Below, piece by piece: positions 24,251 to 27,200 of a stretch of DNA of 64,000 nt (within the stretch, counting starts at the first letter, position 1; every line of letters begins with the position of its first letter). The notes under the pieces were generated by a model, which saw only the letters and a program-made list of their open reading frames with translations, had not been told where the DNA came from and made no database searches. The DNA comes from Pocillopora damicornis (Eukaryota). The DNA lies in the NCBI RefSeq assembly GCF_003704095.1, contig NW_020844518.1, positions 186,001 to 250,000 on the forward strand. The letters run 5' to 3'. The position numbers and the translations under genes were made by a program.

Positions 24251-27200
24251 CTATGCTTCCTTTGGGGGTGCGGACGGTTCGACTTCTGAACTCTGTTGCC
24301 ATGGATAAGACTGTCCTGGAGGTGGATACTGAGGAACTGGTTCCTCGCCAGGGTAGGGTGGTGGGGGCTGCAACGGATACGGGTACCCTGGAGGTGGCGG
24401 ATATGCGTTGGGTGCCGTAGGAACAAAACCCACAGAAGGGGGTGGGTAAGGATTTGATGCCGGTTGAAAAGGAGGTTGGATTGCCGGTTGCTGAGGCGGG
24501 GGTGGATGGCGAATCACGCCAGCTTGTGTGGTCTGAGACACTGAGGTAGTAGTCTGTGTCGCCATTGGAATCCGAGCGGCCCTTGATTGATTCGGTCTCG
24601 TCTGCTTGTATTTTGCAACACACACCACAACACAAATGCAGACGATGAAAACAACCACACCGACAGTGATGGCGACAATAATCTTAGAAGACCCTGGAGC
24701 TAAAAGAAGATTAATAATCATGTGAAACTTATTCCAACCTCATATGTTCTTATCGCAGCTACTTTTAAAATTTCCGTCTCTTAATTTTATCAACAATTTT
24801 ATTAGATAATCAGTTTACTTTTTTCGGTCTGCGTTTCTTTTATTTTTCTTTTGTTTCACCGAGAAGCAATCCAAATCCGCCTTCAAAGTCAGGGGCGACG
24901 CAATTTCAATTTGGAGAGGACGCAACCACATTTCGGGACGACGGAACTTCACTCGGGGGCGACAGGCTAGGGGGCGACAGGCTAGGGGGCGACCGAGAAA
25001 GAGGGCGACATCACCCACGACATGCTATTAAACACTAAACCCAAGTCTAACTTTTAATTCCCAAATTAGCCAGGGTCCAAAGTTGGATTCAACCAGCATT
25101 GAGTTAATGTGACTGGAAATAAACTGTTGGCGACAACGGCTCAGTTCTTGAAAGGATGGATGACGTTATCCCACGGATAAATCCCCATCCGGCGGATTAG
25201 AGTTAACTAAACGTACTGCACTTTCCACCAAACATTTATCTTAGGAGCCAGCTGGCAAATACCACTACGTCTTATGAAACGTCCTTCACGTCCTTTATAA
25301 TAACCTCAACAAGTGAACAGTCACAACTAATAAAAAGATTTCAGTACAGAACTGCCTCTTAGACGTCACGATCTTGTTTTTACGAATCTGACGCTTTTTT
25401 TGCAACTTTATTGTTAATCTAGCGGATGAAAAGCTGAAAAAAAATGTTTACTCGCTACTTAGACCCTGCTCGCTAAAACCGACTCTAAATCCTAAGTAAG
25501 AGGTGTCTCACTGATAATACTGATGAACAAAGATAAGCAACTTACTTTCTTTTTCCTCTGCTGTGAATGTGGCCTTAAAACCTGTGCGGTATTGCATAGA
25601 GTCTGAGCCGGAATGGAAAGTCACCCTCATGTACCGTCCGCTTGAGCGAATGTCTTCTGGTGTTGATAGACCACAGAATGTTCCTTTGCTTTCACTGTAA
25701 CTTTCTTTCCCATCTTGAACCTTTACATAATCTTCGCATAATGATTGGTATTTCGGTTTCAGATAAAATTCATCAAAGCTAAGCTTGACAATATTTCCCT
25801 CTGGCACAGTGATCACCCAATCACATTTCATATTTGGTGGGTATGTGGAACCTTCCTTTGGACTTTCTAATGTACCATACGTTCCATTCAAACTCAGTTT
25901 CTCATTGTTGATGTTCCCATAGTAGCAAATCTCCTTTGAATAAGCAGCAGATGCTATGGAAAAATATGCAAACGACTGACTGTGAATATACGAATATCGT
26001 AAATATATAAACTGCGCGTGAATGAATAAAAGAAGAGTGATCTTCGCGGTTATGAACACTACTGAAGCAGTAATGAAAATGAAGCCGCAAAAACAGGTTT
26101 AGGCTTGCACGGGAGTTGAACCCATGACCTTTACGATACCGGTGCAGTGCTCTACCAACTGAGCTACCAAGCCAACAGGAAGCTTGTAATTTTTTTGATT
26201 CGCAATAAACTTTCGTCAACTCAGTCTTCAACTCATAATGGTAGCGGTGCACCAGCAAATTGGATTGGTAAATAGGTGTAAAGGCACTTTTACAAACGTC
26301 AGCCTCTTCCGCAATTCAAAGCGAGTTGAGGTGACTTTGTTTACATTTATTGTAGCTGAAATGGTAGAAAAGCATAACACAAATGTTTCCCCTTTTTTGC
26401 TAAAGAAAAGAAATTAATCGCAAAGATTCTACTGGGGCTCACGGGCCGCATGAAGCAATTTTGTCTGCTGCTAGAACCAATCATATTTCGGGATTTCCTG
26501 GATTTTGCTTGCTTGGTCACGCCTATCTTGTCAAGTTTTCAAAGACTGTTGGGTTTGTACTAGGCTATTTGCTCTGGATTTCTATGCGTGATACTTGATT
26601 TGGGCATCGCCCCCATCAACTATCACACAATGTAATCGTAAATTTGAGGAAAGTATGACGTTTGTTATGCTCCAAATAAAAGAAATATGCACCGGCAAGT
26701 AACCATGATACTCACACAGCTCTGAAACTTCGAAACGTGCTTTAAAACCTTTATCGTACGAAGATGACGATGAAGAAGAAAACCTAATTCTCATGTGATT
26801 CCCAGTCGAATAAACATCCCGCACAGACTTCATATTGTAGTTGTAATCACAATATCGAACAAGCTCGTCACTCCAAGAGTACTCCCCGTCACGAATCGAC
26901 ACATAGTCTTCATCGCCCGTATGGTCATTACATTGGGTGACGCCTATTCCAAGGTCAAAGTCTTTAAACGTCAATTTGACTCTTTTTCCAGCTGGAACGG
27001 AGACCACCCAGGTGCATTTGGTATCACTTGGGTATGGATAGGGATAATCAGGACTGAAAATTGTACCAGAAGGGCCACTGAGCTGCATGACGTCATAACC
27101 TGAGCCTCCGTTGCGACATATTCCAGCGGCTTCCTCTGTGTGACGTAGAAATAACATTCCCATAAGTTAAGATTTTTATCAAACACCGCTGCATGTGTAA

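Follow-up and report, generated by a model that had tools for sequence, protein, structure and literature searches.

A proline-rich cytoplasmic tail with PPxY motifs is found in several described membrane proteins. According to PMC11315911, LRP10 has CUB domains, one transmembrane segment and such a tail, and LRAD3 (LDLRAD3) activates Itch by means of two PPxY motifs; the same text describes the role of the LRP10 PPxY itself as still untested. Comm, PRRG, CYYR1 and the Shisa-like proteins combine cysteines in the transmembrane segment with a Pro/Tyr-rich tail whose PPxY binds NEDD4-family ligases (PMC5578492), and Scotin and SARAF also bind ALG-2 (PMC5037681 and PMC7504102). The pair PSAP and PPxY occurs in the integral membrane proteins TMEM55B (PMC10761734) and SCAMP3 (PMC9882979), and also in ARRDC1 and LITAF.

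Here we describe gene C, a member of a coral gene family that shares features with each of these groups. Like the vertebrate LRP10, for which a trafficking role has been described, it encodes a type I single-pass protein with CUB domains outside and a proline-rich PPxY tail, but it has a CUB-only ectodomain, a terminal PSAP and a conserved YP block, lacks the DXXLL motif, and belongs to a tandem, lineage-specific expansion. LDL-receptor class A repeats, present in LRP3/10/12, are missing, as there is no Pfam match and the three CUB exons fill the ectodomain. The original prediction that no named receptor has this architecture was too strong, since LRP10 is a precedent and CUB-TM-PPxY proteins are also present in the abalone Haliotis (P0031) and the hemichordate Ptychodera (P0167). 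A paper naming the coral CUB-TM-PPxY family was not found in our search of open-access articles, supplements excluded.

Structure and splicing of gene C

The window analysed is a stretch of 64,000 nucleotides from Pocillopora damicornis, and coordinates refer to this stretch unless a contig is given. Gene C lies on the minus strand and comprises six exons, separated by GT-AG introns that are all in phase 1, which together give an open frame of 578 aa. Exon 1 (31504..31534) contains the start codon and the first portion of the signal peptide, exon 2 (30069..30116) the remainder of the signal peptide, as called from the hydrophobic N-terminus, and exons 3 (28709..29089), 4 (26716..27135) and 5 (25546..25953) encode CUB1, CUB2 and CUB3, respectively (Pfam PF00431, E = 2.7e-21, 1.5e-21 and 2.4e-23). 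The last exon, exon 6 (24251..24699), part of a minus-strand open frame of 24251-24739, encodes the transmembrane helix, the entire cytoplasmic tail and the stop codon. RNA contigs from four libraries, belonging to three studies, bridged four of the introns in all four runs, and the first intron in two of the four. Gene C is therefore a real host gene that is spliced and encodes a type I membrane protein, in which the signal peptide is followed by three CUB domains, a transmembrane helix that includes three cysteines, and a tail of 121 aa predicted to be disordered. Two side observations concern this gene structure. Three transcript-derived proteins (P0053-P0055) begin within an extended exon 2 (30069-30150, minus strand), resulting in an alternative signal peptide, and intron 4 contains a tRNA-Thr-like element (26101-26173, minus strand) within a repeat of high RNA-contig depth, possibly a tRNA-derived SINE.

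The gene C model is identical to RefSeq XP_027039014.1 (P0046) of P. damicornis, which is annotated as 'tolloid-like protein 1'. Tolloid and BMP1 share the tandem CUB domains, but gene C has no astacin protease or EGF domain and instead carries a transmembrane segment and a tail. In the 578-aa protein Pfam matched CUB families only, with no catalytic domain, which bears out the proposed triple-CUB ectodomain without catalytic domain and, together with the transmembrane helix, rules out a tolloid identity. The label is a similarity transfer, and the misleading name of this coral gene family is hereby corrected. CUB-based ectodomains without a catalytic domain are also characteristic of CDCP1, NETO, neuropilin and cubilin/amnionless. 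CDCP1 has three CUB domains as well, but its specific Pfam models fit poorly: PF23665 matches only 36 residues of gene C, and PF23667/23668 are absent. Set against these CUB-TM proteins, gene C has classical PF00431 domains, at only about 26% identity, and a different tail. Cubilin CUB5-8 was the best match both by sequence and by structure, the latter for an AlphaFold2 model of the near-identical relative P0004. This model (10-row alignment, mean pLDDT 70) folds into three beta-sandwich domains with a helix at residues 436-470, and confidence is low in the tail, where pLDDT is mostly below 50.

Based on hydropathy, the transmembrane helix spans aa 436-458 (24614..24682) and includes Cys450, Cys452 and Cys456. 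The latter two are retained in 13 and 14 of 21 homologues, and Cys450 in one, and these cysteines may be S-acylation sites. In combining a single, cysteine-containing transmembrane helix with a conserved cytosolic PPxY, gene C resembles the PY-motif single-pass adaptors, but it has a large CUB ectodomain in place of their lumenal part, which is of six-Cys or Gla type or short. Gene C gave no Pfam match to the Commissureless, PRRG, CYYR1, Shisa-like/Scotin or SARAF families, and the six-Cys C*C*CC*CC extracellular domain of Shisa-like proteins (STMC6) is replaced by three CUB domains.

The Ca2+ sites of the CUB domains were read out with a regular expression, using positions that we take to be those of the acidic triad. 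This gave G-E-R, G-D-S and K-D-G for the three domains of gene C (0/3), in agreement with the cubilin alignment, and 15 of 69 CUB domains in the family passed, with several positions unread. Ca2+-binding CUB domains have three acidic residues and a Tyr (PMC6372009). The CUB domains of gene C thus appear to lack the acidic Ca2+ triad, and binding of the ligand therefore probably does not rely on the usual Ca2+/lysine contact.

The RNA contigs also differed from the window. In run X7, 19 of 828 bases differed in the CUB exons compared to 1 of 449 in the tail exon (p=0.003), and run X6 showed the same pattern. Among the 35 CUB differences found in 40 of the 114 rows, 23 were non-synonymous and 12 synonymous, and a 9-base insertion in CUB2 was also present (CUB exons 25546-29089, minus strand). 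Across eight full-length members of the gene C cluster, variable sites amounted to 43/403 in the CUB part and 10/148 in the tail (p=0.19), and for this reason we do not claim a hypervariable ectodomain or diversifying selection.

Conservation of the cytoplasmic tail

The motifs PTAP (aa 523-526, 24410..24421), PPGY (aa 532-535, 24383..24394), PPPY (aa 542-545, 24353..24364) and the terminal PSAP (aa 571-574, 24266..24277), as well as the CICVVVC stretch in the transmembrane segment, were all located in the minus-strand frame at the places originally indicated. The tail consists for 30% of proline, and the likelihood of chance occurrence was estimated from 100,000 shuffles of the 121-aa tail that kept its composition. 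At least two PPxY motifs appeared with p=0.14, so that two PPxY alone are unremarkable. At least two P[ST]AP motifs gave p=0.0075, both pairs jointly p=0.001, and a PSAP within the last 10 residues p=0.009, all of these being post hoc values for motifs chosen by eye. Since PPxY is frequent in shuffled tails, conservation must decide, and this is the stronger test.

Two sets of tails were compared. The first comprised 22 tails gathered mainly by means of the CUB part: gene C, one genomic paralog and 20 homologues, the latter being CUB-TM proteins assigned by transmembrane and tail similarity, with TM-less and distant cubilin-like matches excluded. For the second, 57 proteins were examined, of which 38 had a complete tail, reaching the end (YPW) block. 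Because these 38 comprise related paralogs and alleles and were chosen for the presence of the end block, their counts describe the family and not independent events. A profile of five tails from the P. damicornis genome, searched against 1.84 billion representatives, yielded 45 matches. The core PPxY was present in 36 of the 38 complete tails and in 18 of the 22 CUB-collected tails, truncated ones included, and PPPYP occurred 16 times in the latter set against 0.46 expected. Two PPxY motifs of some kind were found in 25/38 complete tails, but the upstream PPGY is variable: its Gly is not conserved, and it is broken in the proteins of the Stylophora cluster. The core is retained in Pocillopora, Stylophora, Oculina, Orbicella and Desmophyllum, and the N-terminal half of the tail varies. 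In this half, a lysine just past the membrane (K459) is kept in 16/21 homologues. Most family members also have an (R/A/E)IPM(S/A/T)T motif after the basic patch behind the transmembrane segment (24563-24574, minus strand), with I, P and M conserved in 13/19, 11/20 and 17/20, respectively.

The best-kept stretch of the tail, YPYPL-x2-PPPYPG-x-E-x2-PQYPPPGQSYPWQQ in the 22-tail alignment, was overlooked in the original prediction. It defines a conserved block of about 30 aa for this coral CUB family, with the core PPPYPG-x5-PQYPPPGQSYPW, in which a fixed spacing and the Gly, Gln and Trp residues are shared by five coral genera, in contrast to the drifting flanks. The PQYPPPGQSYPW part (aa 552-563, 24299..24334), whose columns are kept in 14-18 of 16-19 homologues, is the most conserved family-specific element, with a PxYP-x5-YP spacing reminiscent of ALG-2 type-1-like motifs. 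PxYP-x5-YP was found in 12/22 tails against 0.1 expected, and PYP-x6-YP in 14/22 against 0.09. The ALG-2 type-1 motif is given in PMC5037681 as PPYP, PYP or PXYP with a YP four residues on; annexin A11 and Scotin variants are listed there with longer spacings, variable spacing being experimentally unproven. The coral spacing of 5 or 6 matches these AnxA11/Scotin variants and differs from the 4 of the strict form; we refer to the YP block as resembling ALG-2-binding motifs.

The conserved PPPY makes binding of a NEDD4-type ligase a well-supported prediction, and we consider it probable that this block recruits a NEDD4-family ligase, leading to ubiquitination of the receptor or of a partner bound to it and to ESCRT-mediated sorting into lysosomes. 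Part of the evidence runs against this reading: PPxY is also bound by WW proteins that are not ligases, and there are 24 WW matches in the P. damicornis genome; the PPxY is absent from 4 of the 22 CUB-collected family tails; and pairs of PPxY are common in shuffled gene C tails.

The P[ST]AP motifs are less well conserved. The terminal PSAP was found in 8 of the 38 complete tails, compared to 0.64 expected when this segment was shuffled, and in 5 of the 22 CUB-collected tails; PTAP was found in two tails of either set, and any P[ST]AP in 10/38. Among 19 homologues, none matched the PTAP columns T524 and P526 and one matched A525, the family reading PVPTNP or PAPSN at this place. These counts bear on an alternative in which the main job of the tail is direct TSG101 binding through PTAP and PSAP, together with NEDD4, so that the receptor would be driven into extracellular vesicles in the manner of ARRDC1. 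In favour of this, two P[ST]AP in one tail are rare in shuffles, the terminal EPSAP lines up in Pocillopora and Oculina and occurs in duplicate in P0003 and P0144, and PTAP, PPPY and PSAP are invariant in all eight full-length records of gene C's 90% cluster, of which two have a broken PPGY. However, 30 of the 38 tails lack the terminal PSAP, and gene C groups with P0009 and P0012 (support 99/100), two Stylophora proteins that as nearest relatives have neither PTAP nor PPGY and end in PSAL and PPAP, although the Stylophora gene model P0059 from the P0009 cluster retains EPSAP. The commonest substitute is ASAP, in 6/38 complete tails. Since the ASAP of an arenavirus protein was reportedly unable to support budding (PMC3497041), what the family retains could be SAPP, recognised by a different partner. 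In view of this we regard the alternative as unlikely. The tree of the membrane-proximal CUB domain is mostly unresolved (4 of 20 inner branches starred) and therefore does not give the order in which PSAP was gained and lost. Binding of TSG101 by gene C itself is plausible from the motif, and would be optional within the family. In short, the proposed ESCRT/NEDD4 tail is supported as a ubiquitin/ESCRT-type sorting tail, carried by the conserved PPPY and partly by the terminal PSAP, but a fixed 'late-domain set' is unsupported, because PTAP and the Gly of PPGY are not conserved in relatives. Other tail endings were also observed, such as a Ser-Pro terminus in 14/38 complete tails, often SAPP(E/Q)SP (e.g., P0005, P0016, P0139 and P0163), which gene C does not have. 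An overlapping PSAPPxY was considered as a genome-wide theme and rejected, since its 18 matches, none in an evident transmembrane tail, barely exceed the 17 of the reversed control.

The tail of gene C has eight tyrosines, several of them conserved, which fits a signalling scaffold that binds SH2/SH3 or non-ligase WW proteins by its tyrosines and prolines, comparable to CDCP1, which signals through Src. The recruitment of Src/PKC-delta by CDCP1 is taken from a reference title in PMC4791263, and in the Atlas comparison CDCP1, a receptor with CUB domains only, came out as a weak match (score 0.83; all Atlas matches were below the 0.9 lead level and serve as leads only). Against such a scaffold, the conserved tyrosines all lie in PPxY or YP contexts, and the CDCP1-specific Pfam models cover little of gene C. 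A GYAPV-type YxxPhi, a further trafficking-type motif, is present in 17/38 complete tails, but gene C reads GFVPT here and has no YxxPhi-type tyrosine; with its one Leu, an acidic dileucine is missing as well. A signalling function is thus improbable as the main role. That the motifs are by-products of a low-complexity Pro/Tyr-rich tail with no specific partner, to which the proline content, the PPxY in shuffles and several broken or tail-less paralogs might point, is highly improbable given the 30-residue fixed-spacing block kept in five genera and the large excess of PxYP-x5-YP.

A predicted ubiquitin-dependent sorting route

If the tail acts primarily through a NEDD4-family ligase, the conserved PPPY block would bind the WW domains of the ligase, which would ubiquitinate either the receptor or a partner bound via the CUB or transmembrane part. 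Candidate ubiquitination sites are the lysines just after the membrane, such as K459, and the ubiquitinated receptor with its cargo would then undergo ESCRT-dependent endolysosomal sorting. The adjoining YP block could provide a second handle on ESCRT-I/ALIX, possibly dependent on Ca2+/ALG-2. In this respect, ALG-2 bridges ALIX and ESCRT-I (PMC5037681), and in SARAF the binding of ALG-2 beside the PPxY dampens ubiquitination by NEDD4-family ligases (PMC7504102). In gene C and some paralogs the terminal PSAP may bind TSG101 directly, which would be dispensable in the family, and PTAP would be a lineage-specific extra. In the P. damicornis genome, matches to WW and to HECT co-occur on each of the contigs C685, C1135 and C3095, and C305 carries a TSG101-like gene that has both UEV and Pro-rich exons. 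UEV domains were found at three loci in total (L024-L026, on C305, C2092 and C1420), with Pro-rich TSG101-like exons only on C305. A genome search with Vps23_core gave no match, and the control was equally silent.

This mechanism class is already known, and gene C would be an unnamed coral variant of the PY-motif trafficking receptors. By inference, the coral family works like such receptors, and stands outside the tolloid, LRP10, Shisa-like and CDCP1 groups. ARRDC1, LITAF, SCAMP3 and TMEM55B share the motif pair, but a type I receptor that binds ligands through its ectodomain is not among them, and the PSAP of TMEM55B is described as highly conserved, compared to its presence in about a fifth of the complete coral tails. 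Should the block bind ALG-2 as well as a NEDD4 ligase, corals would hold an expanded set of cargo receptors under ubiquitin- and calcium-controlled sorting, which would be relevant to work on uptake, immunity and vesicle traffic. A bolder proposal is that stony corals possess CUB 'capture' receptors, a fast-duplicating family built on one portable tail exon that stacks predicted NEDD4, Ca2+/ALG-2 and optional TSG101 sites, in which gain or loss of the TSG101 site would switch between lysosomal disposal and extracellular-vesicle release, and gene C, with two such sites, would be a ligand-binding receptor for vesicle export; we consider this quite unlikely. The roles in skeletal matrix and symbiosome that had been suggested are unsupported, since the papers that we consulted describe other CUB architectures. 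For instance, the skeletal-matrix CUB proteins of Acropora are secreted and Thr-rich, with a single CUB domain and no transmembrane segment (PMC4890752), whereas gene C has three CUB domains and a transmembrane helix. Our search found no link of the family to calcification or symbiosis. A viral origin of the tail exon was rejected, as the exon is spliced like any other exon of the host and all its homologues are from corals.

The tandem array and its neighbours

Gene C lies within a tandem array, with further copies on the same contig and on C881, and the stony-coral family to which it belongs evolves in tandem by birth and death. Upstream, a broken paralog (33300..34900, minus strand, as are the following copies) contains frameshifts and stops in both the CUB and tail parts, and a broken downstream paralog (11485..13900) consists of a CUB remnant with stops and a frameshifted tail that runs into an N gap. 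Another paralog (6380..10260) retains three CUB exons that are open, whereas its frame meets a TGA at about 6666-6668, where the transmembrane segment ends, and the tail has decayed; it would be a tail-less or released form if expressed, and otherwise a young pseudogene. The first CUB exon of the next paralog (502..1014) is located at the edge of the window, beyond which the gene continues to a tail with PTAP and PPAY at G000:C1153:183108. The ectodomain in the family ranges from one to six CUB repeats. Named members come from the five coral genera listed above, and with many records unnamed this range is not fixed. Two CUB-TM matches in Acropora have short tails without PPxY.

Several other features were noted in and around the array. 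Two more exons with a transmembrane segment and PPPY lie beside it (L010, 2980-3864 and 6227-6583, minus strand; G000:C1153, about 159-162.6 kb), with no CUB exon found nearby, and one of these runs on into a long Asn/Asp/Gly-rich tail. At G000:C881 62525-64993, two family members form a recent inverted duplicate in which the tails face each other, with 83% identity in the tail exon. The CUB array is interrupted by a gene that we take to be NXPE-like (16966-20536, minus strand), with a weak Filamin match, and is flanked by a centrin-like EF-hand gene, recognised by eye, at 36170-38300 (minus strand). The public gene model P0045 fuses this centrin-like gene with two CUB paralogs.
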